Notes: a model not told the origin generated them from the letters alone. A stretch of 64,000 nt of DNA from Acidimicrobiia bacterium (GCA_035762545.1 DASTOM010000024.1:81559-145558); one strand, 5' to 3'. Positions 4,910 through 60,016 are shown, counted from the stretch's first letter. Program-made: numbers and translations.

Positions 4910-5237
4910 TTCCGTGCAAGGTACAGAAGAACGTGTAGGTGCCGGCGGTGTCGTACGTCAAGAGTGCCTCGTCACCCTCGAGTTGCTCGAGGCTGCCGAA
5001 CACCGACTCGGTGGACCATTGGCCGCCGGCGTCGACGGCATTGTGCGGGTTGCGACCGGCTCCTACCCAGGTGACGGTGCCACCGACCGGGATCTCGATC
5101 TCGGTGTACTGGAAGCGATTGTCGTACATTGCGACGGTGACGTCCTGGGCCTCGATGGACTCGCCCTCGTCGGACCCCCCACACGCGACCAAGAGGATGG
5201 CACCCGCGAGTGCGAGTGCCCGAAGATGCGATTTCAC
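4860..5237 (-). CDS. Cupredoxin (plastocyanin/azurin-like type-1 copper) lipoprotein
   Basis: Lipoprotein signal LLVAC. Type-1 copper ligands in PHNAVD...FFCTLHGN...M. Length about 125 aa. Translationally coupled to flanking genes. Confidence 0.75.
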   Translation of the reverse strand: MKSHLRALALAGAILLVACGGSDEGESIEAQDVTVAMYDNRFQYTEIEIPVGGTVTWVGAGRNPHNAVDAGGQWSTESVFGSLEQLEGDEALLTYDTAGTYTFFCTLHGNAEGDGMAGTLIVGEG

Positions 5238-5791
5238 TCTTTGGAACCTCCGAACAGGCCCTTCAACCAGGACCAGAGTGATGAGAAGAACAGCGAGATA
5301 CCTCTGACCTCGCCGGCTGCGATGCCTTCTGCCTCCCGCTCAGAGGAGGCCCCCAATTTTCCCTCGAGACATCCGACGAAGTCGCCGATCAACCGCTTCG
5401 ACATCTCGTTGATGAGACCGGTTCGACCGAACTGAGCCGCCGGCCCCGAGAGCGTGACATCGGCGTCCACGGTCACTTTGGAGCCCGCGGGGTCGTCGAA
5501 TATCCCGTAAACGACTTTCACCTGACCGCGGCTCCCCCCCTTCTTGTCGACGCCCTTGCCCTCGATGGTCGCGGTGTGGTTGGCCTCGTCAGGGCTGATC
5601 GTCGCCGTGCCCTCGAAGGCCGCCGTCATCGGGCCGAGCTTGACTGCCAGTGTGCCGTCGTAGCTGCCGTCGTCATGGGCATCGGTCAACTCGGCGCCGG
5701 GAAGGCACTGGGCAACGGAAGGCACGTCCTGGAAGAAGTCCCAGACCTCAGCCGGCGGCCGCGCAACGACGAATTCCTGTGAGATCTTCAT
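5234..5791 (-). CDS. SRPBCC family protein, CoxG-like (carbon monoxide dehydrogenase subunit G family)
   Basis: N-terminus MKISQEFVVARPPAEVWDFFQDVPSVAQCLPG matches the CoxG signature. AGGAGA Shine-Dalgarno 5 nt upstream of ATG. Stop overlaps the cupredoxin start. Confidence 0.7.
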   Translation of the reverse strand: MKISQEFVVARPPAEVWDFFQDVPSVAQCLPGAELTDAHDDGSYDGTLAVKLGPMTAAFEGTATISPDEANHTATIEGKGVDKKGGSRGQVKVVYGIFDDPAGSKVTVDADVTLSGPAAQFGRTGLINEMSKRLIGDFVGCLEGKLGASSEREAEGIAAGEVRGISLFFSSLWSWLKGLFGGSKE

Positions 5792-47244: not shown

Positions 47245-48174
47245 ATGGCCACCACCAGACTGATCTCGACATCGCACGGCACCAACCGGGAGGCGTTCTC
47301 CGCCACCGACTGGGCGCTGTTCCTCTCGCTGGCTGCCATCTGGGGGTCGTCGTTCCTGTTCATGGCCATAGGGCTCGATGCATTTCATCCCGGGCTGGTG
47401 ACACTCATACGGGTCGGTCTCGGAGCGTCATTCCTGGCGCTGATACCTCGCACACGGTCTGTCTCGATCGACCGTGAAGACTGGCCCAAGATCGCCTTGC
47501 TCTCGGTGATCTGGGTGGCGTTGCCGTTCACACTGTTCCCGATCGCCCAACAGTGGATCGACTCCGCCATCGCCGGGATGCTGAACGGGGCGACCCCGAT
47601 CTTCACCGCCCTCATCGCTACCGCGCTCCTCCGGAGCCTGCCCGGCCCCCTTCAGATGACCGGCCTACTTCTCGGGTTTGCCGGCATCGTGGCAATCGCC
47701 CTGCCCTCGGCTGGTGGCGATACGACCGCGGCCATCGGGGTCATCCTGATCGTCCTCGCCACCATGGGATACGCGGTTTCGCTCAACATGGTTCCACCGT
47801 TGCAGCAAAAGTACGGGTCACTTCCGGTGACTGCCCGGGTTCTATGGCTGGCCGCCCCGATGGTGATGCCCTATGGGCTGGTGGGACTGGGACAATCCAG
47901 CTTTGCCTGGCCATCCCTGCTGGCGGTGGCGGCCGTCGGCATTCTCGGAACCGGCCTCGCCTTCATCTTCATGGGAAACCTCGCCGGAAGCGTCGGAGCG
48001 ACGAGGGCCTCGTTCCTCTCCTATCTGATCCCGGTGGTCGCCGTGGTGCTCGGTGTGGTTTTTCGGGACGAGATCGTCTCTCCGGTGGCCATCGCCGGAG
48101 TCCTGCTGGTGATCATCGGTGCGATCCTGGCCTCACGCCGTGAGACGAGAGAGATCGACCGACGCCCGGCGTAG
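47245..48174 (+). CDS. DMT superfamily transporter (EamA domain)
   Basis: Duplicated EamA 5-TM halves. Confidence 0.7.
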   Translation: MATTRLISTSHGTNREAFSATDWALFLSLAAIWGSSFLFMAIGLDAFHPGLVTLIRVGLGASFLALIPRTRSVSIDREDWPKIALLSVIWVALPFTLFPIAQQWIDSAIAGMLNGATPIFTALIATALLRSLPGPLQMTGLLLGFAGIVAIALPSAGGDTTAAIGVILIVLATMGYAVSLNMVPPLQQKYGSLPVTARVLWLAAPMVMPYGLVGLGQSSFAWPSLLAVAAVGILGTGLAFIFMGNLAGSVGATRASFLSYLIPVVAVVLGVVFRDEIVSPVAIAGVLLVIIGAILASRRETREIDRRPA

Positions 48175-49056
48175 GGCACGCATCGCCAACTCCTTGTCCC
48201 CGAGCCGGTGTCGCAGTTCCCGTTCGAGGCCACCGATCGGATAGAGGTTCTGTGGCGCCCGCGGGTCCTTGTGCCGGGCTGACGCATAGCGGGGAAGGGT
48301 GGCGCTCACCCGGGAGGCGACTCGCGCCGCGGTGGCGGCGTCGGTGTCGGCGTCGATTTCACAACGCACCAGCCCCCCGGCCGGGCCGGCGTGGTTGGCG
48401 AGCCGCAAGTACCACGAGTACCGGCTCCACGACGTGGTGGTCAGGAACAGCGGCGTCCGATAGCCGGCGGGCAGACCGGTCAGAACCTGGCGCAACTCCA
48501 TGGGGAGGTACTGGACCTTCTGGGTTTTGATGTAGCCGACGGCATTCTCGATGTCGCGGGCATGGCTCAAGGGCCCGTCCACCACCAAGAGCTCAGACTC
48601 CCCCGCCAGGCGGGTCATCTTCGCCTCGAGGTCACCCATGCGCTGCTGTATCCCCAGCCACAGCTCTTCTGGAGTGGTCCCCTTGGTCGCTTTGACCTCG
48701 TATGCGCCGACGCTGGTGGGAACGTCGACAGCAGGCGCAGAGGTGAACAACCCACGTTCCACCTCGGTGTTGGTGATGTGGGCGGTGCCGTTGCACCTGA
48801 CCACGCCAGCGGCGTAGGTGGCTGCCAGCGCAAAACCGGGGAAGTCGGGAGGCTGATCGATCCAGAGCGTCGCATCGACCCGTCGCACCCCGTCGACGAA
48901 CAGGACGTCACCGACCGGCTCGGAATCGGGGAGAAGGGGCCGCCAGTCCTCCGGTTTCAATTCGACCGAGACGTCGACGTTCTCGCTGGCATCCTCCAGG
49001 TCGGCGTCGGTCGGTGCGCCGTAGTCGGAGTCCCAGGCCTCCACGGTGAACTTCAC
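48133..49056 (-). CDS. Uncharacterised protein translationally coupled to sbcC; hypothesised NurA-like / RNase H-fold nuclease
   Basis: Start overlaps the sbcC stop by 4 nt. Two hydrophobic-strand-DG motifs (VLFVDGVRRV and LLVVDGPLSHARD) and several conserved acidic residues. No HD, HNH or P-loop motif. Confidence 0.45.
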   Translation of the reverse strand: MKFTVEAWDSDYGAPTDADLEDASENVDVSVELKPEDWRPLLPDSEPVGDVLFVDGVRRVDATLWIDQPPDFPGFALAATYAAGVVRCNGTAHITNTEVERGLFTSAPAVDVPTSVGAYEVKATKGTTPEELWLGIQQRMGDLEAKMTRLAGESELLVVDGPLSHARDIENAVGYIKTQKVQYLPMELRQVLTGLPAGYRTPLFLTTTSWSRYSWYLRLANHAGPAGGLVRCEIDADTDAATAARVASRVSATLPRYASARHKDPRAPQNLYPIGGLERELRHRLGDKELAMRALRRASVDLSRLTA

Positions 49057-51413
49057 GGAGCCAGCCTCACGGTGGCTCCGGTCGGCTCACGGGTCACCAC
49101 ATATCGCACCGGAGCGCGCGCCGCCAGTTCTTTGACGTGGGTGATGACACCGACCATCAGACCCCGTCCGGTCAGCTCTTCGAGAACCGAGGCGACGGTG
49201 TCGAGCGAATCGTCATCGAGTGTGCCGAATCCCTCGTCGAGGATGATGGCGTCGAGTCCCGACCCGCCCTTGGCTGCCAGCGTCTCCGCCAGAGATAGGG
49301 CCAGAGCCAGGGAGACCAGGAAAGTCTCCCCGCCGGAGAGTGTGGACACCGACCGTTGCTCGTCTGCGTTGCGATGGTCGACGATCGAGAAGTCCCCGGA
49401 GTAGTCGGAGGCGAGCGAATAGCCGCCGTTGGACAGCTGAGACAGCAGGTCGTTGGCCCCCTGCACCAGGTCGACCAGGGCACCGGCCATGAGCCACTGC
49501 TCGAAACCGTTGGAACGAAGGTGTCCCATCAAGGTCGTGGCCACCGCAGCGTCCTTCGTCGCCTCCTCCTTGGTTCGCGCCAGTTCGACAGAGTCAGCCA
49601 CGGCCTTCTCGTGGAGTTCGACCATGGTCCGGGCAACGTGGAGGGCGGAAGCCAGTTGGACCGCGTAGGGCTCGACCGCGGGGATCTCGTGGCTTTCGAG
49701 CAGCGCGGCCAGGCCTTTCTCGGCTCGTTCGGCGGCCATCTCGGCGTTTTCCACTGCCGTCCGGGCAATCTCCAACTGTGGCTCCATATCCTCGAGCCTC
49801 GCCGTGCGCCACCGCAGCAGGTCTTTCCACTGCACGATCACGTCGTCGCTCTCAGACAACTCCGGCTCGAGATCGGCGACTCGCAACTGGGCCTCGGTCA
49901 GCTTCCGACCGATCCGACGGGACTCCTCGGCCAGGTCCTCCAGGGCACGCCGTGCAGCCTTGACTTCTGCTGTCCGGGCTTCGAGTGCCTCCCGGGCCCT
50001 TGACATCTGTGTCTGGAACTCAGAGACCTTCTCCGACAACTGCGCCAGCTCATCAGGACTGGGGACATTCTCGAGGTCGACCATGACCGATTCCCTCTGC
50101 CGACCGACCTCCTCACGGGCCGTCTCGTGACGGGTGAGGACGCTCCTGGCATCGTCGAGTGCCCGCCTTGCCTCGTCCACGGAGACGGCGGCCGCCCGCT
50201 CGGCCTCCTCGAGTGCGTCGAGCTCGGGAAGGGCGGCTTCGCCAGGGAGGCGCTCCACGACCTGAGTGCAGACCGGACAGGCCTCGCCGGCGACGAGGGT
50301 GCCGACGAGGGCGTGGGCGGCGTGCCGCTGACGGGCCGAGTTCAGGTCGTCCCGGATCTGGAGGAGGAGGGCGGTGGATTCGCCGACCCGGGCTTCGGCA
50401 ACCGTGGCGGCCTCGGCAATCTCCGGCTGATCGAGGTCGGCGAGCCGGGCGTCGATCTCGGCGAGGCGAGCGTGGTGCCGGTCCCAGGAAGTCAGCTGGT
50501 CGGGCGAGGGAAGGACTTCCAGGGCTGATTCGATCTGTTCGATCTGTTGCCGGGCCGTTTCCAGCCTCTCCTCAGCGGTCTCGGCCCTTTCACGTGCATC
50601 GGAAGTCAGTGCATCGAGAGCCTCGAGACGGTCCGGTGCTGTGATCGATTGGAGTCGCTCCACCGAGCCGCGCAGGTGAGCTTCGTCGGTCGATGCCTGG
50701 TCGGCGATCCTGCGTAGTTCTGCCAGAGCCTTCTCGAGGTCTCCAAAACCGGCGGAGAGCTCGTCCAGTGTCTCGAGACGCTGGCGAGCCGTTGCGGCCG
50801 TCTCATCGTCGGGGACTTCCAGGGCCGCCAGCGCCCGTTCCGCTGACTCGGCCCGATCCGTCGAGACCGCGGCTCTGGTGCGGGCCAACTCCCGCACGGT
50901 GGTGTACACGTCGAGGCCGAGAAGGCTGCGCAGAAGTCCCTGACGCTCCGCCTTGGTCGCGGTGAGGAAGCGAGCAAAGTCCCCCTGGGGGAGGACCACT
51001 GTCCGGGTGAAGTCATCGAACCTGAGCTTGAGCAGATCCTCGACCGCCGTGCTGACCTGATCCGCCCCGCTGGCGACGACCTCATCGCCCAGGAGGAGAC
51101 GGGCTTCTTTGACGCTGGCCCCACCGGTCGCGGTCCGCTGCGCCAACCGGACCGCCGTGTAACGGTCTTCACCGACGTCGAACTCGAAGGCAACCCGGGC
51201 CCGGTCGGAGCCGGCAGTGATGGCAGGGGCGACTGCGTTGCCCCCTAGCCTGGGAACCCGTCCGTAGAGAGCGAAGATCATGGCGTCGATGAGACTCGAC
51301 TTGCCCGACCCGGTCGGTCCGGTCAGTGAGAAGAAGTCGACATCATCGAAATCGACCTCGACCGGTTTCCGATAGGCGGAGAAGCCCTCGACCCGGATCC
51401 GTGCCGGTCTCAT
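49053..51413 (-). CDS. sbcC: DNA double-strand-break repair ATPase SbcC (Rad50 homologue)
   Basis: Walker A GPTGSGKSS, long coiled coil with zinc-hook CPVC, ABC signature LSGGETFLVSLALALSLAE, Walker B LDEGFGTLD, H-loop GVITHV. Confidence 0.85.
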   Translation of the reverse strand: MRPARIRVEGFSAYRKPVEVDFDDVDFFSLTGPTGSGKSSLIDAMIFALYGRVPRLGGNAVAPAITAGSDRARVAFEFDVGEDRYTAVRLAQRTATGGASVKEARLLLGDEVVASGADQVSTAVEDLLKLRFDDFTRTVVLPQGDFARFLTATKAERQGLLRSLLGLDVYTTVRELARTRAAVSTDRAESAERALAALEVPDDETAATARQRLETLDELSAGFGDLEKALAELRRIADQASTDEAHLRGSVERLQSITAPDRLEALDALTSDARERAETAEERLETARQQIEQIESALEVLPSPDQLTSWDRHHARLAEIDARLADLDQPEIAEAATVAEARVGESTALLLQIRDDLNSARQRHAAHALVGTLVAGEACPVCTQVVERLPGEAALPELDALEEAERAAAVSVDEARRALDDARSVLTRHETAREEVGRQRESVMVDLENVPSPDELAQLSEKVSEFQTQMSRAREALEARTAEVKAARRALEDLAEESRRIGRKLTEAQLRVADLEPELSESDDVIVQWKDLLRWRTARLEDMEPQLEIARTAVENAEMAAERAEKGLAALLESHEIPAVEPYAVQLASALHVARTMVELHEKAVADSVELARTKEEATKDAAVATTLMGHLRSNGFEQWLMAGALVDLVQGANDLLSQLSNGGYSLASDYSGDFSIVDHRNADEQRSVSTLSGGETFLVSLALALSLAETLAAKGGSGLDAIILDEGFGTLDDDSLDTVASVLEELTGRGLMVGVITHVKELAARAPVRYVVTREPTGATVRLAP

Positions 51414-52549
51414 GAGCCGGTCCCCACCGTTTGGGCTTCGTCGAGCAATTCAGCGAAGAGGGCTTCGACCCGCGGGTCGGAGCTGTCCTTTTCGGCGAGG
51501 TACTTGGCGAAAGCCTCGGTCGGGTCGAGCCCTTGCCTCGACTCGGTGGCGGAACGTGGCTGGGTCGGGCTCTCCAATACCACTTCAACGGCATTGGGGA
51601 TCGCCTCACGCACTTCGTCGGCGAGGCCCACCCTGGCGCTCTCCCGGAGGACCACCCGGACATAGGCGTCACCGGTGTCACCGGCACGGGCCAGGACCTG
51701 CTCGAGACTTCCGGTGAGCGACATAAGCCTTCGACCCGAGGTGAGAGGAAGCTCCTGAACCGAAGCGGGCTTGCCCGGTTCGGCGGTGACCAGCAGGGCA
51801 CCCTTCTGATCGTTGACCTCGCCGAAGTCGAGTTGGAGCGGCGAGCCGGAGTACCAGACGGCCGAGGAGTGCGGCATCTTCTGTTGACGATGGAGATGGC
51901 CGAGCGCGACATATGACAGGTGGCCGGGGAAAAGGGCCGCCGGGATGGCGTATCCGAAGATGTGGGCGGTCCGCTCTCCACCCCCTGCCTCGGCGCCGTG
52001 GACGGTGAGATGCCCGGCCAACAGGTTGACGGTGTCAGGGGTCAAGTCTGCGGTGAGCATCTCGATGACCCGACGCATGCGCTCTTCGTACTTGCCGGCG
52101 TGCTGGTCGGGGTCGGAGCCCATGATGTCCTCGACCTTGACGATGGCCCGTTGGGAGACGAACGGGAGCAGGGCGACCTTGGCACCGACGTCGGGAAGGT
52201 CGACGACTCCCCCATCCTCGGGGGACCGGGCCGTCCCCACGACTTTGACGCCTGCCCTGTCCAGCAACGGCGCTACGGCGTCGAGCCGTGCCGGATGGTC
52301 GTGGTTGCCGGCGACGACGAGAACGGGTGACACCTCGGACAGGTCGAGCAGGGTGCGCCACACGATCTCCTCGGCAGCGGGAGTCGGTGAGGCGGTGTCG
52401 AATACATCACCTGCGACCAGGGTCAGGTCGACATCGTGGCTGTCGGCTAGTCCAACCAGCTCGGACAGCACCTCACGATGCTCGTCGGAGCGATCGCGCC
52501 CCCGGATTCGACGGCCGACATGCCAGTCGGAGGTGTGCAAGACCTTCAC
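51410..52549 (-). CDS. sbcD: DNA repair nuclease SbcD (Mre11 homologue)
   Basis: Calcineurin-like phosphoesterase motifs HTSDWHVG, AGDVFD, VVAGNHD, GHLH. GTG start. 4-nt overlap with sbcC. Confidence 0.85.
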   Translation of the reverse strand: MKVLHTSDWHVGRRIRGRDRSDEHREVLSELVGLADSHDVDLTLVAGDVFDTASPTPAAEEIVWRTLLDLSEVSPVLVVAGNHDHPARLDAVAPLLDRAGVKVVGTARSPEDGGVVDLPDVGAKVALLPFVSQRAIVKVEDIMGSDPDQHAGKYEERMRRVIEMLTADLTPDTVNLLAGHLTVHGAEAGGGERTAHIFGYAIPAALFPGHLSYVALGHLHRQQKMPHSSAVWYSGSPLQLDFGEVNDQKGALLVTAEPGKPASVQELPLTSGRRLMSLTGSLEQVLARAGDTGDAYVRVVLRESARVGLADEVREAIPNAVEVVLESPTQPRSATESRQGLDPTEAFAKYLAEKDSSDPRVEALFAELLDEAQTVGTGS

Positions 52550-52620
52550 GTCGAAGATCGTAGGAAGGGGGTGTGACAGATTTGAGGAACGTCAGGCGTC
52601 GGCCTGGAATGAGTTGAGGC

Positions 52621-52995
52621 TCAGTTCCCCTCGAGCGGGGTCTGTTGATGCAAGACGAGTTGCCAGTCGCCATCCTTGGCCTGGTAGACGCTGAGGATGT
52701 GAGCCCGGTATTCCTCGGCATCTTCTGTTCGTTTCCCAGTCGCTTCATAAACGAGGCCTACGACACCATCTTCGATCGGCACGAAGGTGGGATCGCTCAT
52801 CTCGTAGCTGGCCCATGGGTCCGCCTGACCCATGGCATCGACGACGTCTCGTTTGTCGAGCACCCCCATCGAGAGGACGAACCTTCCGCTGTCCGCTACA
52901 TGGGTTTCATAGAAATCCTGGTCGCCCGAGCTCTGCCAGAACGACTCTTCGATTTCGAGGACATCGGCGAACTCCACCGGTACTCCCTCGGTCAT
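52621..52995 (-). CDS. NTF2-like / SnoaL-like (DUF4440-type) protein
   Basis: C-terminal block YQAKDGDWQLVLHQQTP typical of DUF4440/SnoaL_3. Confidence 0.5.
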   Translation of the reverse strand: MTEGVPVEFADVLEIEESFWQSSGDQDFYETHVADSGRFVLSMGVLDKRDVVDAMGQADPWASYEMSDPTFVPIEDGVVGLVYEATGKRTEDAEEYRAHILSVYQAKDGDWQLVLHQQTPLEGN

Positions 52996-53069
52996 TGGCT
53001 GGGATTACCCGTGCGGGAAACTCGACAAACGGTGGTGGATGAGGTATCGATCGGGATGAGTCGGGGCGC

Positions 53070-54195
53070 TCATCCCGGGCTTCGTCGTCGACGAGCCTGT
53101 CCTTCCTCGATGTGGGTGAGCACGTGGTGGAAGCGGCAGAGCAGGACCCCATTCGCCACAGAGGTCTCACCACCGTCCGCCCAATGCTCGACGTGGTGGA
53201 TGTCGGCCCATCGTGCCGGTCTCTCACATCCGTTCCACCTGCAGGTGCGGTCCCGGGCGACGATGGCCCGCCGCTGCGCCACAGTCCACACCCTGGTCTT
53301 CCGGCCAACGTCGAGGACTTCGGAGTCGGGCCCGAACACGATCCGACACACCGACGAGTCGCAAGCGGTCAAACGAACGGCGTCGACAGCGACGATGGAA
53401 CCGGTGTCGAGGGTCTCGTGGGTGCCACCGGCGATGCCTTGCAAGCCGGCGATGTCGGTGAGCAGTTGAATCTGGGGACGTTCCCCGCCGACCTGCACCT
53501 CGTTGTCGTGGGTGAGATGACAGTTCGCCATCTCTTCCAGGGCGTCGTGTCGGCGCTGTCTCATCGACCTCGGATCGTCAGGAGCTGGCGGCGGCAGATG
53601 CGCGGAGAGGGCGGCTTCGAACGCCTCGCCCGCCAGTTGGGTCAGCCAACCATCGACACGTCGCATTCCATTCACGGCCTGGGACAAGGACAGGCCGCGA
53701 CGGACCATCTGTGACTCCAAGTCGAGGTCACCGGGTCCATCGACCGCCTGCCGCCAGTATTCGAGAGCACGGCCGGTCTCACGAACCGTCAACGGTTCCA
53801 CGATGTCGACCAGCTTCTCCTCGGCCTCCCGATAGACGTCAGGAACGGCGTCGGCCGTCTGGAACAGCTGGCTTGCCTGATCGGAGGAGATGCGGCCGTC
53901 CGACCAGGCCCGATAGGCCGCGGGGGCCGAGGCCTGTCCCTTGACTCGGGTCGCAAAACGTTTGGCCCGTCCGGCGCATCCGACCCACCTCCATCAGGTA
54001 CGTCGTGAGGGAGGGGAAACCCAGATCGGTGAGGCCACCCGTCGATTCGAGGACAGCGACCTTCTCGGCAACCAGGACCTTCATCTGGTCGATCCCCCGG
54101 CACAGTTCCCCGATCTCGACATTGAGCTCGTCGGTGGATAGCGATCGGTTGTCGACCGCCTTCAAATCATCGAGCAATGAACGAAGTTCGCTCAT
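53070..54195 (-). pseudogene. Frameshifted DUF222 / HNH endonuclease (REP13E12-like)
   Basis: N-terminal DUF222 segment in ORF 53839..54195 (MSELRSLLDDLKAV...LMEVGRM). The remainder (ATRVKGQ...AYRAWSDGRISSDQASQLF... then the HNH motif CRWNGCERPARWADIHHVEHWADGGETSVANGVLLCRFHH) is in a different frame. The single frame switch occurs near 53975-53995. Confidence 0.55.
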
Positions 54196-54307
54196 CCCAT
54201 TCCCCTCATGTCGAGAACGTACAACCCGCCCCCGACAGAAACTCGAACTATCAACCCCGCCTGAGAATCAACCTACGACCCAGGTGTGACAAGAAAAGGC
54301 GAGGGCA

Positions 54308-54375
54308 AAAACGAGCGCATACGTGCCGTTCTCGTGCGCTGCGCGTAACGCTCGTTATCCGCTCAAGAGTGTTGA
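54308..54375 (+). repeat. 68-bp element, copy 1 (catacgtgccg-N21-gctcgttatccgctcaagagtgttgatctcgggcgg)
   Basis: Direct repeat of 55089..55156 with identical internal spacing (32 nt). Lies in an unusually AT-richer intergenic stretch upstream of the membrane protein gene. Confidence 0.55.
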
Positions 54376-54455
54376 TCTCGGGCGGTAGGCGACCGACCAA
54401 ACAAGGTCAGCGCGTCTGTCAGCAACCAACTCCTTCGGATGCTTACCTGGTCTGA

Positions 54456-55070
54456 ATGCGCAGGGCGGTCGTTGTTGGGCTCGTTTGGGGAGCCTTCTGT
54501 GGGATGGCGAATGGCCTGCCAGGGGCCACGACTGTGGTCCAGATGGCGGTTCCGTGGATCTGGGTTGCGGCATTCGTCTCGTATCGAGGCGCAGACAGCA
54601 GCAGGCTGGCTGCCGTACTGGGTGCCATCGCGTTGTTTGTAGCCAATGTCGCCTACTTTGGAGTTGGGTCATTGGCTCGGAGCATTTCGGGGCTGTCTCC
54701 GGTCGGCGGCATTCGGTTCTTCGCATTGTGGGCGGCCATTGGATTGGTCATTGGGCCAATCGCCGGGGTGGTGGGCTGGTGGCTGACTTCTCAACGACGT
54801 TCATTCACCGCGGTTGTGATGCTGGCAACGGTTTCGGTTGCTGAGCCATTGGCGCTGTGGACCCACATCGACCACCTCGATGCTCACCTTGTGTACATAG
54901 CTGTCGCGGCAGCTGGCTTGGCGTTTCCGCTGGCTTGGTTTCGACGAGACCGGCGCAAGGCGCTCAGAGCTCTGGCTCTGGTTCTGATTCTGACCTATCC
55001 GATCGCAGTGGCGCTAGAAGCCACGTTGATAGCGCTTCGTCAGATCTCTTCTCCGATGAGACTCATCTGA
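54456..55070 (+). CDS. Hypothetical membrane protein (about 6 TM)
   Basis: Hydrophobic segments throughout. Flanked by a 68-bp direct repeat. Confidence 0.45.
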   Translation: MRRAVVVGLVWGAFCGMANGLPGATTVVQMAVPWIWVAAFVSYRGADSSRLAAVLGAIALFVANVAYFGVGSLARSISGLSPVGGIRFFALWAAIGLVIGPIAGVVGWWLTSQRRSFTAVVMLATVSVAEPLALWTHIDHLDAHLVYIAVAAAGLAFPLAWFRRDRRKALRALALVLILTYPIAVALEATLIALRQISSPMRLI

Positions 55071-55088
55071 TACTCGGAGCGCCCGCTC

Positions 55089-55156
55089 CATACGTGCCGA
55101 TACCGGGCACTTTGCGAAGTGCTCGTTATTCGCTCAAGAATGTTGATCTCGGGTGG
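55089..55156 (+). repeat. 68-bp element, copy 2 (catacgtgccg-N21-gctcgttattcgctcaagaatgttgatctcgggtgg)
   Basis: 34/36 identity in the 3' block and 11/11 in the 5' block. Located 18 nt after the stop of the membrane protein gene and about 290 nt upstream of the methyltransferase gene. Confidence 0.55.
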
Positions 55157-55443
55157 GTCGGAGAGATTGCCAAGCGAGCCCGGTCGCTGAGTCAAGCTTT
55201 GTCGCTCGGGCGCTGGAGTGGCGTGACAGCCTTCTTCGCCGTACTCGCCGCCTTCGTCGTCAGCTACCTCGTCTGCGTCGAGGTCGCCAAGTACTTCTTC
55301 TACAAGATCCATACCCCAATCACGGCCCAGCCTCTACAACGCGACCACGTCCACCGACTCGCCGCCCGCTGGAGCCATCCCCAGCCGCTGCAGCTCCAAG
55401 AATCCAGCCCTAACGCACGCCAACACCGGGTACGCTTCCGCCG

Positions 55444-56214
55444 GTGAGCTTCATCGTTGGGGCAGATGCGTACGACAGATTCATGGGCCGCTATTCGATG
55501 CATCTGGCACCCCAGCTTGCCGATCTGGCAGGGGTCGATGCCGGTCAGGAAGCCCTCGATGTCGGATGCGGCCCCGGCGCACTGACAGGCGAACTGGTCG
55601 GGCGTCTCGGACCATCCGCCGTAGCAGCAGTCGATCCTTCAGAATCCTTTGTAGCCGCGGCACATGAGCGGTACCCCGAAGTCGATGTGAGACGCGCTGC
55701 GGCCGAAGAGCTCCCATTCGCCGATCAGACCTTCGACGCCACCCTGGCTCAACTCGTAGTCCACTTCATGACAGACCCGGTTCGGGGCCTTGGCGAGATG
55801 GGCCGGGTGACACGCAAGGATGGTGTGGTGGCGGCGTGTGTTTGGGACCATGCCGGCGGTCAAGGGCCACTCAAGGTTTTCTGGGACGCGGCGCGCTCGC
55901 TTGATCCTGATGTCGATGATGAGTCGTGGCGTGCCGGCACTAGCGAGGGCCATCTAGCGCAGTTGTTCCAAGAGGCCGGGTTGCGCCAAGTCGAGCAGTC
56001 GGTTCTCGAAGTTGGCGTCGACCATTCGAGCTTTGAGGAGTGGTGGGAGCCGTTCACTCTCGGCGTGGGCCCTGCAGGCGCCTACACCGCCGGCCTCGAA
56101 CCGCGACGAGCATCGGAGTTGCGTGAACGTGCCCTCGAAATGTTGCCGACGGCCCCGTTCACGGTGACAGCACGGGCCTGGGCAGCGCGCGGGGTGGTGC
56201 AGCCTGTCAGCTGA
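55444..56214 (+). CDS. Class I SAM-dependent methyltransferase
   Basis: SAM-binding motif LDVGCGPGALT and acidic post-I motif. Confidence 0.8.
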   Translation: MSFIVGADAYDRFMGRYSMHLAPQLADLAGVDAGQEALDVGCGPGALTGELVGRLGPSAVAAVDPSESFVAAAHERYPEVDVRRAAAEELPFADQTFDATLAQLVVHFMTDPVRGLGEMGRVTRKDGVVAACVWDHAGGQGPLKVFWDAARSLDPDVDDESWRAGTSEGHLAQLFQEAGLRQVEQSVLEVGVDHSSFEEWWEPFTLGVGPAGAYTAGLEPRRASELRERALEMLPTAPFTVTARAWAARGVVQPVS

Positions 56215-56691
56215 TCGGAAGAGCTCAGCCGGCCGCTTGTAGCGGGCCGAGCACCCGGATCGTCTCGATCTCGTCGACGACCTCCACGCGCCACTCGTTG
56301 CCCAGGAACACCCAGCTGGAGAAGTGATCGACCTCGGCCAACTCTTCGGCAGTCTTGCCGTATACCCCACTCATCTCCATGAATGTGTCAAAGCAGTCCT
56401 GGGTGCCCGGATAGAGGAGGTAACACAGATGCAGGGACACGTTGGACCGTGACTCGTGCCGGGTCCCGACCCTGGCACACGTACACGACGCGATCCTCCA
56501 GAACGCGATCTCCTAGCTTGGCTTTGGTGAGCTGCAGTATCACGGTGTGGATGACCGGCAACAGAGTCGACCCAGACCAGATCCAGCTGGTCCGAATCGC
56601 CACCATCACTACCCCAGAAGGGGCGCATAACGCGCGGCCCTTATCACGAAATCGACGAAATCACCCGCGCGCTATCCGGCAATCTGCGCTA

Positions 56692-57184
56692 TCACTCAGC
56701 ACCCTGACGCCGCCGAATCAACTCCTCAACTGGCGTCGGCAGGGTCTCCTCGAAATCGATCAGCTTGGCCCACGTCGGCTTGACCACCATCCGCACCATC
56801 GAGTCATAGAGGGATCGCACACCAGCCTCCCACTCCACCCGCTGCCCGGGCGTCATCTCATAGGTCCCGCTCATTTGGAAGTACTCGTCAGGGATCCCAT
56901 CGGACTTCATCGAGTTCTGCATCACCACGGAGCAGGAGGATCTTCGGCGGATGGCTCTCCGTGTCGATCGTCAACGCCACCGCTGCGTTGCGTCGCAGCG
57001 AGGCAAGCTTCGGAGCGTTGGTCGGGGTGCACATGACGATTCCCGTGCCGTTCCAGAAGATCCCGATCGGCACGACTCTGGGGGTGCGATCCGACGCCAC
57101 ATAGGCCAGACGAGCGATGTCCCGGTTCAGCATCTCCTGACTGAGCGGTTTCGCCAGCATCTCGGCTACCTCGTCACGTCCCAC
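56692..57184 (-). pseudogene. Frameshifted PPOX-class (probable F420/FMN-dependent split-barrel) oxidoreductase
   Basis: The N-terminal half (ORF 56888..57184, RLAYVASDRTPRVVPIGIFWNG...AVALTID) and the C-terminal half (ORF 56692..56928) are in different frames and overlap by about 40 nt. Together they give the usual length of about 160 aa. Confidence 0.45.
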
Positions 57185-57211
57185 GGTGTCCTCCCACCCG
57201 GCTTGGTGGCG

Positions 57212-58879
57212 CTACAAATCCTCGAAGGGGTCCTCCGGGCCGTCGTAGTCGGTGGGACGAACCGCCTCGGAGGCACGGGTTGCCCAGGCGGGGAAGGGGA
57301 ACTCGAGCACCAGAGGAACCGGTAGCTCGGGCTGGCTGAGGATCATCGTCCCCGGTTTCACGATCGTCGCTCGCTGACGGTGGGGACCGGGGAGGAATCC
57401 GTACTCCTCACGTGACGCCTCGGCGGAATCGAGACGTCCCACCACCCGGATCGAGCTGTTGGCGATGATGCGACGCTCCACCTCGGATGCAGTCTGCTGG
57501 GCTCCGATCAGGATGACACCCAATGACCTGCCCCGTTCGGCGATGTCCAACAGGATCTCTTTGATCGGGCTCGAGCCTTCCCGGGGGGCGTACTTGTTGA
57601 GTTCGTCGAGGACCACCATCATCAATTCGTCCGCCTGACCGGCACGCTCCTTGTCCTCGAATGCCCGCTTCAGGGTCACACCCACCACGAATCGCTTGGC
57701 CCGATCGTTGAGGTTGTGCAGGTCGACCACCGTCACTTGGTGGTGCAACCCGATTCGGTGTCGTTCCGGGTCGGCGACATCGGCCCGGATCAGCCGACCC
57801 AGGTGGCGTACAGACGCTTGCAGACGACGGACGAATGCGTTGACGGTCCCGATCCCGATCGCCGGCCCGGCCCACTGGTACCGGTGCTCTTCGCTCTGCA
57901 CCCGCTCGGTGATGAGGTCGGCCAACTCACGGAACGTCCGCACCCTGACGCCGTCGATCACGGCCGCACCGGTCTCAGTCAGATCGGCCTGGCGCAGTTG
58001 CGCCATCACGTTGTAGACGACGGTGGTGTATTGGGCCCGGTCGTCCTCGGCGTCGGCGAACAGGAACGGAAGGAGATCGTCGACGCAGAACTCGTGGATG
58101 CTCCAGAAGAACGACGTCACGTCCGACCGGGAGGCGACATCGGCCGTTGCCCTGGGATCGTCGATGCGAGGCGGGGCGAACAACCCGACCGAGTCGAAAG
58201 GGTTGCTGGGAAGCCCAAGGTCGGCGTAACGGGAACGCTGCTCCTCGTCGAGGCGGTTGTTGACCCGGTCGAGATGCAGAAGGTCTTCGCCCTTGACGTT
58301 GAACACCAACGCTTTGGTGTTGACAGCGGCGGGGCCCAACACTCCCGAGGTGAAAAGAGAGTGGAGCAGGAAGGTTGCGTAGCTGGTCTTGGTTGCCACA
58401 CCGGAGATGCCGGAGATGTTGATGTGCGCCCCTCGCTCACCGTTGATGAACTCGAGGTTGACCCACAGCGGCTCACCGTTGCGTGCCAGACCCACCGGCA
58501 GCTTGCGTTCCATGCGGTCGAAGAACAGCGCCCGGTCGCGTTCTTCGCCCTGGGCCACCCGCACCTCCTGTCCTGGTCTTGGCGGGACGAAGACCTCGGG
58601 CTCGAAACGGGTGGCGGTGACCTGGGCGGCCTCGGTGACCTCGGCGGGGAGGATGCCTTCCTCGATGAGGAACACATCAGAGTCGAAACGAGCTCCCTCG
58701 TGCCGGGCAACTACCTGTCCCACGGTGCCGTACATGCGCACCACCTCGCCGGTGGGCAGCACCCGCTCCAGTGCGACGACGTCGTCGAGCTGCAGGTACT
58801 CGCCTTCGCCGACACCCACCCAGAACTCGAGTGGCGTGGCGTCCCTGGTTCCCAGGACTCTCCCGACCGAATCAGCCAT
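57212..58879 (-). CDS. HerA-like ATPase (FtsK/HerA superfamily, DUF87-type)
   Basis: N-terminal HAS-barrel-like segment MADSVGRVLGTRDATPLEFWVGVGEGEYLQLDDVVALE. Deviant P-loop INISGISGVATKTS. Walker B MMVVLDELNKY. FtsK/HerA-type C-terminal block LGVILIGAQQTASEV...SIRVVGRL. The ORF-track extension 58880..59359 is rejected. Confidence 0.65.
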   Translation of the reverse strand: MADSVGRVLGTRDATPLEFWVGVGEGEYLQLDDVVALERVLPTGEVVRMYGTVGQVVARHEGARFDSDVFLIEEGILPAEVTEAAQVTATRFEPEVFVPPRPGQEVRVAQGEERDRALFFDRMERKLPVGLARNGEPLWVNLEFINGERGAHINISGISGVATKTSYATFLLHSLFTSGVLGPAAVNTKALVFNVKGEDLLHLDRVNNRLDEEQRSRYADLGLPSNPFDSVGLFAPPRIDDPRATADVASRSDVTSFFWSIHEFCVDDLLPFLFADAEDDRAQYTTVVYNVMAQLRQADLTETGAAVIDGVRVRTFRELADLITERVQSEEHRYQWAGPAIGIGTVNAFVRRLQASVRHLGRLIRADVADPERHRIGLHHQVTVVDLHNLNDRAKRFVVGVTLKRAFEDKERAGQADELMMVVLDELNKYAPREGSSPIKEILLDIAERGRSLGVILIGAQQTASEVERRIIANSSIRVVGRLDSAEASREEYGFLPGPHRQRATIVKPGTMILSQPELPVPLVLEFPFPAWATRASEAVRPTDYDGPEDPFEDL

Positions 58880-58915: not shown

Positions 58916-60016
58916 GTGAGCCTCGTCGTGTTCCCTTTCAAGGAGGAGGACGTCTCCGTGGTGGCCGCCAATTTGAAGACCGCCGCCGCACACGACCGGG
59001 TCGACGAGGTGTGGGCCGTTGCCGCGGCTGAGGGGGCGGCGATGGCTGACGTCGACGAAGCCGCGACTGAGGTGGCGACGGCGATTGGCACTCCGGTGTC
59101 GGTGTTCCCTCAGGAGCGGATCGGGATCTACCGATCCGGCAAGGGCGACGGGATGAACACTGCGATTGCCTTGGCAGCAGAGCGAGGCTTCGACCGGACT
59201 CACTTCTACGACGCAGACATCACCAACTTCGACACGACGTGGATCGACGGAGCGGAACATGCAGCAGACAGGGGCTATGGCGTGGTCCGTCACCGCTTTC
59301 CCCGGGCGGCGACCGACGCCATGATCACCTGGATGGTGACCCGACCCGGACTGGCACACCGATTCCCCGGAACCCTGCTCCCCCGGCTCGGACAGCCGCT
59401 CGGAGGCGAGATCCTCCTCAATCGGGACGCCGTCGAGGCGCTAGCGGGCAAGAAGAGCGTGCGCCAGCGTTCGGATTGGGGCATCGACACAGTGATCACC
59501 CACGCCACGGCGCTACTCGACCTCGGTATCTACGAGCACAACGCGCCCGACGGGAAGCGCCACGCTCTCTATGGCTCGCTCACCGATATACGGGACATGG
59601 TCCTCGAGTGCCTCGACGCCGTGGCCCGACTCGAAGGAGCACCGGACCCGGCGGTCGGCTTCGATTCCGACCCGCCCTCCGAGGTTCCGGCCGACCTCAA
59701 GGAGACAGTGGCGTACGACGTATCGGCGACGCGACGATCGATCGACCAGCCGATCTCGGAGGAAGAACGCGCCATCTTCCACTCCCTGGGACTCGATCCC
59801 AGCGGCCCGATCGTGGTCGATGACCGTTTGTGGAAGCGGCTCCTCCCCCAGCTCCTGGTCAGGTTCGACCTCACCGACCACGCTTGGCGTGGTGTCGTCT
59901 TTCGGCTCTGGGTCGAACGGGTGATCCATTACACGACACATCAGGTTCCACTGGGATACGACGCTGCGATGGTGTACCTCGAAGAGACGGTGCAGGCGTT
60001 CGAGCACCCGGGATGA
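58916..60016 (+). CDS. Glycosyltransferase resembling glucosyl-3-phosphoglycerate synthase (GT81 family)
   Basis: Alignable by eye to the mycobacterial GpgS layout: N-terminal VVFPFKEEDVSVV, GKGDGMNTAIALAAERG, then FYDADITNFDT, and a C-terminal region with R.PLL..L....GGE.LL.R. Confidence 0.45.
   Translation: MSLVVFPFKEEDVSVVAANLKTAAAHDRVDEVWAVAAAEGAAMADVDEAATEVATAIGTPVSVFPQERIGIYRSGKGDGMNTAIALAAERGFDRTHFYDADITNFDTTWIDGAEHAADRGYGVVRHRFPRAATDAMITWMVTRPGLAHRFPGTLLPRLGQPLGGEILLNRDAVEALAGKKSVRQRSDWGIDTVITHATALLDLGIYEHNAPDGKRHALYGSLTDIRDMVLECLDAVARLEGAPDPAVGFDSDPPSEVPADLKETVAYDVSATRRSIDQPISEEERAIFHSLGLDPSGPIVVDDRLWKRLLPQLLVRFDLTDHAWRGVVFRLWVERVIHYTTHQVPLGYDAAMVYLEETVQAFEHPG

Follow-up and report, generated by a model that had tools for sequence, protein, structure and literature searches.

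Does the run of short and broken genes between herA and sbcD in this genome reflect DNA that was acquired and is now decaying, or does it reflect errors of assembly? The window, by which we mean the whole stretch of 64,000 nucleotides that was analysed, belongs to an uncultured Acidimicrobiia MAG. Within it, positions ~52590-57211 form a 4.6-kb insert that separates herA from sbcD and splits the herA-sbcD-sbcC-nurA repair cluster, occupying the normally short herA/sbcD spacer. The initial annotation named both possibilities, and held that such a density of disruptions is unique in the window. The latter claim agrees with a GC-phase ORF map, in which 52.6-57.2 kb alone is in short pieces and the rest of the 64 kb consists of long ORFs, the map being crude enough for isolated frameshifts elsewhere in the 64 kb to escape it. 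The insert holds at least four gene remnants, with lesions that are repeated across independent assemblies. We consider it quite probable that it is a strain-variable accessory islet in the herA/sbcD spacer, acquired and eroding, and that a deletion in its HNH gene is confined to this assembly. The features discussed are the following:

52557..52578, minus strand: TGTCAC-N10-TACGAT motif, candidate PafBC-type promoter, 7 nt upstream of the sbcD GTG
52621..52995, minus strand: intact DUF4440 (NTF2-like) gene, PF14534, the last gene of the insert
53070..54195, minus strand: DUF222-HNH endonuclease gene, split by a 2-nt deletion between 53976 and 53977
54318..54385, plus strand: repeat copy R1, its first 11 nt (CATACGTGCCG) the same as in R2; haplotype breakpoint
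54456..55070, plus strand: intact DUF6518 membrane-protein gene, PF20128, likely start at 54504; cassette cargo
55089..55156, plus strand: repeat copy R2, the 68-nt direct-repeat partner of R1
55094..55447, plus strand: orf117, a chimeric ORF whose 5' part is repeat R2 plus 70 nt, the rest being ATPase-derived
55444..56214, plus strand: intact class I SAM-dependent methyltransferase gene (small-molecule type), Methyltransf_11/25
56225..56476, minus strand: 3' two-thirds of gene b, a gene of 125-130 aa without a name, the N-terminal ~44 codons gone
56473..56553, minus strand: SnoaL-like (NTF2-fold) remnant, ~27 of 125 codons, with a deletion junction on each side
56554..56691, minus strand: spacer from PPOX to what was the SnoaL gene; the C run at 56620 varies in length
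56692..57184, minus strand: PPOX-class (PNPOx_N / F420-type) pseudogene, recognized from frames, homologues and orthologue DNA
57184-56904 and 56902-56692, minus strand: N-part and C-part of the PPOX gene, with a frame shift between them

The insert in the herA/sbcD spacer

The HerA flank matches PDB 7f6d (E = 1.4e-145), and the SbcD flank matches Metallophos and SbcD_C. Most relatives lack the block: in a comparison of the locus, herA and sbcD lie at most 130 nt apart in 53 of 72 genomes, and this close spacing spans the whole 65-91% range of HerA identity. Inserts of more than 400 nt occupy the same spot in 15 of the 72, and their cargo (oxidoreductase, truncated globin, DsbA-like lipoproteins and others) is unrelated to that of the window. 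On the sbcD side, sequence similarity to relatives picks up again at ~52588-52596, just upstream of the TGTCAC-N10-TACGAT motif, which therefore marks the edge of the insert.

An alignment of the spacer showed this motif to be conserved in nine relatives with a herA-sbcD spacer. It fits the form tGTCgg(N10)tA(N3)T of PafBC-dependent (RecA-NDp) promoters (PMC8635444), and is a candidate for one. Accessory genes would have been inserted at the herA/sbcD spacer upstream of this promoter-like motif, and since sbcD keeps the conserved motif at its start codon, the cargo need not silence sbcD-sbcC-nurA. A damage-type promoter of its own at sbcD, if the candidate is one, is probably what lets the cluster accept insertions at one spacer repeatedly.

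The composition of the islet deviates from that of the host, modestly and not in every gene. Its GC of 0.619, against 0.648 in the remainder of the window, is the minimum among all 4.6-kb segments (mean 0.646, sd 0.010), and an AT-richer stretch pointed out in the initial annotation reaches 0.58 at 54000-54499. Measured against 36 reference genes of the window, GC3 is about 4 sd low in two genes, DUF6518 (0.64, z = -4.2) and the methyltransferase (0.66, z = -3.8), and host-like in the HNH gene, PPOX and gene b. The methyltransferase protein occurs in identical form on 15 contigs, and the DUF4440 protein in 6 other assemblies.

The absence of the block from most relatives could also mean that the common ancestor of the clade already carried it and that most of these relatives deleted it, with no insertion at all. 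Bacteria do have a deletional bias, and in the lineage L105/L106 a DUF222-HNH gene and an intact PPOX gene, orthologues of those in the window, adjoin sbcD in a gene order that differs from the window's. Part of the islet content is therefore old at the locus, and the history of the islet is more complex than a single insertion. However, the adjacency of herA and sbcD in 53 of 72 relatives extends over the entire range of HerA identity, the cargo is unrelated where inserts exist, and two of the islet genes are deviant in GC3. We regard loss from an ancestral state as quite unlikely, and infer that the block was acquired here rather than lost elsewhere.

How such DNA would have arrived is not evident from its gene content. 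Domain and PHROGs matches to the islet ORFs, all of which were assigned, included no integrase and no phage structural gene, and neither a transposase nor a prophage was found in the islet. A tRNA scan of the window gave no hit, and tRNA-linked integration was rejected on this ground; neither junction of the islet shows a target duplication. With PADLOC and PHROGs, islet proteins gave only generic SAM-fold and HNH matches, and identification as a defence system or a prophage was rejected. Against Rfam, 52000-58000 had no hits at E values up to 1. Of the hallmarks of an island (a mobility gene, a tRNA target and flanking direct repeats), the islet shows none beyond the HNH gene.

The closest likeness is to flexible genomic islets at core-gene hotspots, which share conserved flanks (here herA and sbcD), a content that varies even between near-identical strains, small accessory cargo, mild compositional deviation and many decaying genes. 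Unlike those, the islet has no integrase, tRNA or direct-repeat boundaries, and its hotspot divides a DNA-repair cluster immediately upstream of a conserved damage-type promoter-like motif. The islet is ordinary genome flux, and leaves current understanding unchanged.

Two frameshifts of different standing

The PPOX gene, which the initial annotation had as split near 56900-56930, is broken at 56902/56903 by one extra C (GAAGTCCGAT, compared with GAGGT-CGAT in orthologues). An alignment with the DNA of the orthologues in L105/L106 showed this single 1-nt insertion. Full-length homologues (163-176 aa, 77-87% identity) align with 90-100% of the PPOX sequence once it is repaired, and take in both halves. 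Among independent metagenome assemblies, 6 of 6 with coverage of the site (L001-L006) have the extra C, 6 contigs carry the 76-aa C-piece, and a search of 5.8 billion proteins gave no intact PPOX protein of more than 87% identity. The frameshift is real and fixed. Past the shift, 22 codons differ synonymously from the orthologue and 5 non-synonymously, and because these differences are mostly synonymous the lesion is young. Programmed frameshifting was considered and set aside, as no slippery motif is present at GAA GUC C GAU. The insertion of one base in the PPOX gene is one step in the erosion of the islet.

The frameshift in the DUF222-HNH gene, expected within 53975-53995, was located at 53976/53977, and on the minus strand the N-part (54195 to ~53977) is read in one frame and the C-part (to 53070) in another. 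A G/C homopolymer near 53990 had been suspected as the lesion; the actual site is elsewhere, at GGATG^CGCC, which is not a homopolymer and where 2 nt (AG on the minus strand) are lost. The joined halves comprise DUF222 positions 32-306 and the HNH part, and the repaired or intact protein matches PF02720 (E = 1e-23) and PF01844 (E = 1e-4). In an incidental look at the 64-kb window, no second DUF222-HNH copy was noticed. In the relatives L017 and L031, a DUF222-HNH paralogue of 48-51% identity lies upstream of herA, at a distance of 5 kb.

P0137, the intact protein of 375 aa, is encoded in full by L113-L116 and in part by L001 and L011. The six other assemblies with sequence at this site all retain the AG and an open frame of 375 aa; the deletion occurs in this MAG alone. 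Contig L114 equals the window across 9,373 bp, with the AG indel as the sole difference, and the exact 118-aa N-terminal product was found on 1 contig only. In the natural population the gene is whole; the deletion represents either an error of assembly or a rare allele, and not decay at the population level. A genuine rare allele, reflecting very recent inactivation in one strain, is for this site alone a serious prospect, to which we give somewhat less than even weight. Outside repeats, short-read assemblers seldom introduce false deletions of 2 nt, there is no homopolymer at the site, and other small indels segregate within the islet; set against this are the absence of the deletion from all six other samples (0/6), the identity of L114 over 9.4 kb otherwise, and the restriction of the 118-aa product to one contig. 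For annotation, DUF222-HNH should not be labelled a pseudogene of the species, and PPOX should be. An exact look-up found neither the 243-aa C-piece of the HNH gene nor the 98-aa N-piece of PPOX on record as such, because gene callers picked other starts.

A link to the REP13E12 elements of mycobacteria, suggested in the initial annotation, held for the domain architecture only. In mycobacteria, REP13E12/DUF222/HNH is handled as a repetitive element (PMC10589994). The REP13E12 or 13E12-repeat proteins of M. tuberculosis resemble the window's gene in having DUF222 followed by an HNH motif with Cys/His ligands, both being actinobacterial. Unlike REP13E12 of Mycobacterium tuberculosis, one copy was seen here and no repeated DNA unit of ~1.4 kb; prophage, integrase, tRNA and attB evidence were not found in the window, and the HNH gene is a passenger of the islet and at most a suspected agent. 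It might nevertheless be an active selfish element, homing or REP13E12-like, that targets the herA/sbcD spacer and imports or reshuffles cargo. The gene is intact with a complete catalytic motif, and DUF222-HNH lies beside sbcD with differing neighbours in three lineages: the window, L020 (86% N-terminal identity) and L105 (81%). However, most inserts at this spot in relatives are without an HNH gene, and neither a second copy in the window nor defined element ends were noticed; we consider such activity unlikely.

Gene remnants and recurrent lesions

Two overlapping ORFs of ~70 aa had been read as one broken gene. The ORFs exist (71 and 73 aa, 56225-56609), both with coding-like GC phase, and derive from two different genes. 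One contributes residues HTVILQLTKAKLGDRVLEDRVVYV of intact 125-aa SnoaL proteins (P0126-P0136). Contig L100 aligns to this remnant at 56550-56473, and contig L097 retains 250 nt more of SnoaL, with a junction overlap of 4 nt (56550-56553); L097 is also the evidence that the SnoaL start once lay downstream of 56554..56691, a spacer in which 5 of 8 covering contigs lack one base at 56620. The other is gene b, with intact homologues of 125 aa (P0122) and 130 aa (P0123). In contig L099 an intact gene b is convergent with the same methyltransferase, and the alignment extends over 56476-55446. The debris consists of remnants of a SnoaL-like gene and gene b, fused by deletions with 4-nt microhomology.

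The third remnant, orf117, corresponds at 55227-55447 to the C-terminal portion of a Cation_ATPase_C-like protein. Its homologues are annotated as Mg2+-importing ATPase or cation-transporting ATPase C-terminal domain (PF00689), and contig L097 has a longer version that departs from the window at 55227. Pfam and NCBIfam gave no matches for the debris ORFs and orf117, and their identities came from homology search. Short-homology deletions have left only pieces of the SnoaL-like gene, gene b and the cation-ATPase-C-like gene.

Strain-level small indels concentrate in the debris, at 56620, 56523 and 56374-5. The islet resembles ordinary bacterial pseudogene decay in its 1-nt PPOX insertion, its deletions with 4-nt and 11-nt junction identities and its segregating indels, and shows nothing out of the ordinary by comparison. 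It offers a population-resolved snapshot of a small accessory islet that erodes via single-base insertion and short-homology deletions.

Mis-assembly or consensus errors might have produced all of these disruptions, the genes being intact in the organism. This would suit the HNH deletion, which is seen only in this MAG and is contradicted by 6 other assemblies, and several haplotypes diverge in the region, a situation in which assemblers can mis-merge. It is hard to reconcile with the PPOX shift, the SnoaL and gene b remnants and orf117, which are the same base for base across several sequencing projects, or with the lack of an intact PPOX above 87% identity in 5.8 billion proteins, and is therefore highly improbable. 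The PPOX, debris and cassette lesions are real alleles common to many samples. A locally error-prone assembly consequently fails as the general cause, and the decaying acquired island proposed in the initial annotation stands for the absence of the block in most relatives, its deviant GC and its recurrent lesions, with the HNH frameshift not part of it.

Repeat R and the DUF6518 cassette

The 68-bp direct repeat reported in the initial annotation was recovered at 54318-54385 and 55089-55156. The two copies are 81% identical over 68 nt, and the repeat core was matched in 0 of 100 shuffles. They are members of a dispersed family of ~66-nt repeats, here called R; the herA loci of 80 related genomes contain no copy of R. 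The two copies bracket a 771-bp DUF6518 cassette, which the window, L001 and L116 carry and L008, L010, L114 and L115 lack. Haplotypes with and without it are found among near-identical strains, with the breakpoint inside the shared 11-mer. We infer that deletion across the 11-nt identity at the repeat starts produced this polymorphism, in which the cassette is gained or lost between two copies of R. A short dispersed repeat here marks cassette breakpoints that differ between otherwise identical strains.

Several identities for R were rejected. A well-folded RNA is disfavoured by nearly absent covariation in the consensus structure (RNAalifold covariation term +0.16), by inconsistent plus-strand z-scores of single copies (-2.8 to +0.8) and by the lack of an Rfam match. 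No integron integrase was found in the islet or on R-bearing contigs, and with no consistent hairpin either, R is not an integron attC cassette site. Nor is it a component of the HNH element, since the R-bearing contigs L107-L112 are without DUF222-HNH and the HNH locus of L020 is without R. One pattern match to R, in L111, is due to chance (22 nt, unrelated flanks). A sigma-70 scan around the repeats gave no promoter-like site, and terminators were at chance level.

R is like REP/MITE-like dispersed repeats and mobile promoter-like elements in being ~66 nt long, well conserved, locally clustered and in one orientation, mostly upstream of single accessory genes, and in bounding a gained or lost cassette; integron attC is a loose analogy. 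It differs from REP, MITE and attC in having no Rfam family, consistent hairpin, terminal inverted repeats or nearby integrase or transposase. R is the sole element of the islet that might merit more study. It is conceivable, if rather unlikely, that it is an undescribed portable promoter/operator block or recombination site that drives the gain and loss of single-gene cassettes in some uncultured Actinomycetota. Were R such a portable module, cassette arrays would exist that work without an integron integrase, and the DUF6518 polymorphism would be one such event caught.

Gene layout and the accessory insert

Every islet feature listed in the initial annotation was found again at the same coordinates. 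The herA–sbcD region, including two copies (R1 and R2) of a direct repeat, is organized as follows.

Features of the herA–sbcD region
58879-57212, minus: herA (PDB 7f6d HerA, E = 1.4e-145)
57184-56904 and 56902-56692, minus: PPOX-class gene in two frames
56609-56388 and 56440-56225, minus: two short ORFs (debris)
55444-56214, plus: SAM methyltransferase gene, with a 117-aa ORF (orf117) ahead
55089-55156: R2, 68-nt direct repeat (81% identity to R1)
54456-55070, plus: DUF6518 membrane-protein gene
54318-54385: R1
54195-53070, minus: DUF222-HNH gene in two frames
52995-52621, minus: DUF4440 gene
52549-51410, minus: sbcD, then sbcC, then a NurA-domain gene

The order herA, sbcD (Mre11-like), sbcC (Rad50-like), nurA at 48133-58879 (-) resembles the archaeal herA-mre11-rad50-nurA cluster. 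Its herA-sbcD-sbcC part is kept in about 70 Acidimicrobiia/Nitriliruptoria MAGs; nurA was recognized just in the window.

The block was set against relatives and against its flanks, as the initial annotation had proposed, and relatives mostly lack it. No HerA from another Acidimicrobiia MAG exceeds 90-91% identity to that of the window. sbcD lies downstream of herA on the same strand in 72 of the relatives' 80 herA loci, with a gap of ≤130 nt in 53 of the 72 and >400 nt in 15. Cargo in the larger gaps is unrelated, for example a pyridine-nucleotide disulfide oxidoreductase in L017, a truncated globin-like gene in L018 and, in L052, L055 and L056, a mannosylglycerate-synthase-like gene together with DsbA-like lipoproteins. 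In L020 the gap contains a DUF222-HNH gene, a SnoaL-like gene, a PPOX-like gene other than that of the window, and a lipoprotein. Homology to relatives' DNA ends directly after the herA stop codon and restarts at ∼52588-52596, and the insert therefore spans about 52590-57211. Its GC content (0.619 vs 0.648 for the remaining window) is the lowest among all 4.6-kb windows. GC3 is 0.64 for DUF6518 and 0.66 for the methyltransferase, vs 0.783 ± 0.033 for 36 reference ORFs. Since the HNH, PPOX and gene b pieces (gene b being an unnamed gene left as a remnant in the debris) are host-like in composition, unlike these two, the parts of the islet differ in age and form a mosaic.

Divergent from herA, at 58916-60016 (+), is a mannosylglycerate-synthase-like gene (MGS_GT + MGS_C). 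More distant relatives have ORFs similar to it by eye between herA and sbcD (L052 13812-14948, L055 6940-8109, L056 13484-14617, L057 12664-13902, L067 13351-14553); if the likeness is more than by eye, the surrounding genes have been reshuffled about this one herA-sbcD spacer.

Every relative with a herA-sbcD spacer, L018, L019, L022, L023, L025, L026, L027 and L031 among them, has a TGTC-N12-TACGAT motif 9-14 nt ahead of the start of sbcD. The window version, TGTCAC-N10-TACGAT, lies at 52578-52557 (-), 7 nt before the sbcD GTG. It fits the form of the mycobacterial PafBC motif, tGTCgg(N10)tA(N3)T (PMC8635444; PMC6789036), which suggests a damage-inducible, near-leaderless candidate promoter for sbcD-sbcC-nurA in Acidimicrobiia. 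The insert is placed upstream of the motif, so sbcD-sbcC-nurA could keep its own transcription. Such transcription, possibly damage-inducible and leaderless, would make the spacer tolerant of inserts.

Frameshifts in the PPOX and DUF222-HNH genes

The split of the PPOX gene into two frames was borne out. The joined translation has thousands of homologues, the best 120 of which (161-208 aa, 77-87% identity, 89-100% query coverage) read ...GDAELDEV-DGIP... at the exact point of the frame change. Compared with its closest orthologues (L105, L106), the window carries one extra C at 56902/3 (GAAGTCCGATGGG vs GAGGT-CGATGGA). Six contigs from independent assemblies of other samples (L001-L006), 99.7-99.8% identical to the window, show no indel against it at this site and therefore share the frameshift. 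Past the shift, 22 synonymous and 5 non-synonymous codon differences separate the restored frame from the orthologue; the gene was thus selected during most of the divergence and the lesion is recent. The PPOX gene is a genuine pseudogene, young and fixed. In the orthologues' lineage (L105 1-1380, L106 1-792), DUF222-HNH (81% identity), intact PPOX (87%) and sbcD follow in that order, so that the same two islet genes adjoin sbcD in an order differing from the window's.

The DUF222-HNH frameshift is present in the window, but other assemblies are intact. The 118-aa N-terminal piece exactly matches HEU4320122.1 (locus tag VFS66_08570), from a contig of 348,909 nt in a third-party-assembled Acidimicrobiia MAG. 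Over 2,302 bp, contig L011 departs from the window only in reading GGATGAGCGCC where the window has GGATG--CGCC. The deletion does not fall in the G/C run suspected initially. The two bases are also present in L001, L113, L114, L115 and L116, and are the sole difference from L114 over 9,373 bp. With them restored, the predicted 375-aa protein combines DUF222 with a complete HNH motif, and is an exact record in four contigs. The frameshift is private to this assembly, reflecting either a rare allele or an error in the consensus; in both cases the population has an intact gene. The initial reading as a decaying acquired island holds in part, for the islet and its decay, with this frameshift standing outside the decay.

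REP13E12-type elements have a role as phage attB sites, described in the phiRv1 literature. The window gene matches mycobacterial REP13E12, a known repetitive DUF222/HNH element (PMC10589994), only in domain architecture. The proposed link holds to that extent, but no integrase, transposase or prophage gene was found among the islet proteins and no tRNA in a scan of the window; the islet proteins also gave no defence-system signature. DUF222-HNH genes adjoin sbcD in three lineages with different neighbours, which leaves a low probability for the endonuclease gene as the mobile agent.

Gene remnants in the debris

The two short ORFs had been read as another broken gene; they are remnants, but of two genes. 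A search with both joined recovered intact SnoaL-like proteins of ∼125 aa, matching only the stretch HTVILQLTKAKLGDRVLEDRVVYV, and unnamed 125-130 aa proteins (P0122, P0123) matching the 71-aa ORF plus ∼13 codons upstream. Intact SnoaL (L100) aligns to 56550-56473. L099, where gene b is intact and converges on an orthologous methyltransferase gene, aligns to 56476-55446; the two stretches of homology meet and share 4 nt. A conspecific variant, L097, keeps 250 nt more of the SnoaL gene, and the window junction relative to it again has a 4-nt overlap (56550-56553). Further strain indels, at 56620 (C-run, five contigs), 56523 and 56374-5, are as expected without selection. The first is a C4/C5 homopolymer length polymorphism among samples; one C fewer (5 of 8 covering contigs) extends the 73-aa ORF to 79 aa, beginning at an ATG.

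orf117 and its longer L097 version have only 55227-55447 in common, and the 5' part of the window ORF is lost to R2-derived sequence. Homologues of the L097 version are annotated as Mg2+-importing ATPase or cation-transporting ATPase C-terminal domain (PF00689). All (P0158-P0180) measure just 68-199 aa, including those on contigs hundreds of kb long. The family may therefore consist of small membrane proteins that stand alone, descended from the P-type Mg2+ ATPase C-terminal domain, and not of pump tails.

The R repeat and the DUF6518 cassette

R1 and R2 bracket the DUF6518 gene; shuffled sequence gave no chance matches to the core of this repeat. Four contigs (L008, L010, L114, L115) join the sequence left of R1 straight to R2, without the 771 bp between; the window, L001 and L116 carry this cassette. 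A different left flank abuts R2 at the same base in L005. The haplotype breakpoint lies inside 11 nt common to R1 and R2 (CATACGTGCCG), and deletion between these two identical stretches would produce precisely the haplotype without the cassette.

Scanning JGI metagenome contigs with the 22-nt R core found true copies on five contigs, with up to five co-oriented copies on one 7.3-kb contig.

R copies on three contigs
L112: 556-621, 2601-2656, 3999-4064, 4967-5032, 5807-5866
L107: 606-672, 1523-1586, 2221-2281
L108: 5404-5462, 7568-7633

The family (∼66 nt, GTGCCGATnTCGnGCRC...GCTCGTTATCCGCTCAAGAATGTTGATCTCGG) is clustered and mostly co-oriented. Most copies are followed, 40-200 nt downstream, by an accessory gene in the same orientation; such genes include an ECF sigma factor, a MerR-cyclase, a lipoprotein and a small toxin-antitoxin-like pair. 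R was not found in the herA loci of 80 relatives (1.3 Mb), has no Rfam match and showed no consistent fold. We regard it as a dispersed, sequence-conserved intergenic repeat, our best guess being a portable promoter or operator block, and as the one loose end meriting follow-up. Between two R copies of L112, at 5200-5742 (-), are two neighbouring HEAT-repeat-like ORFs of 89 and 80 aa, which may be one frameshifted gene.
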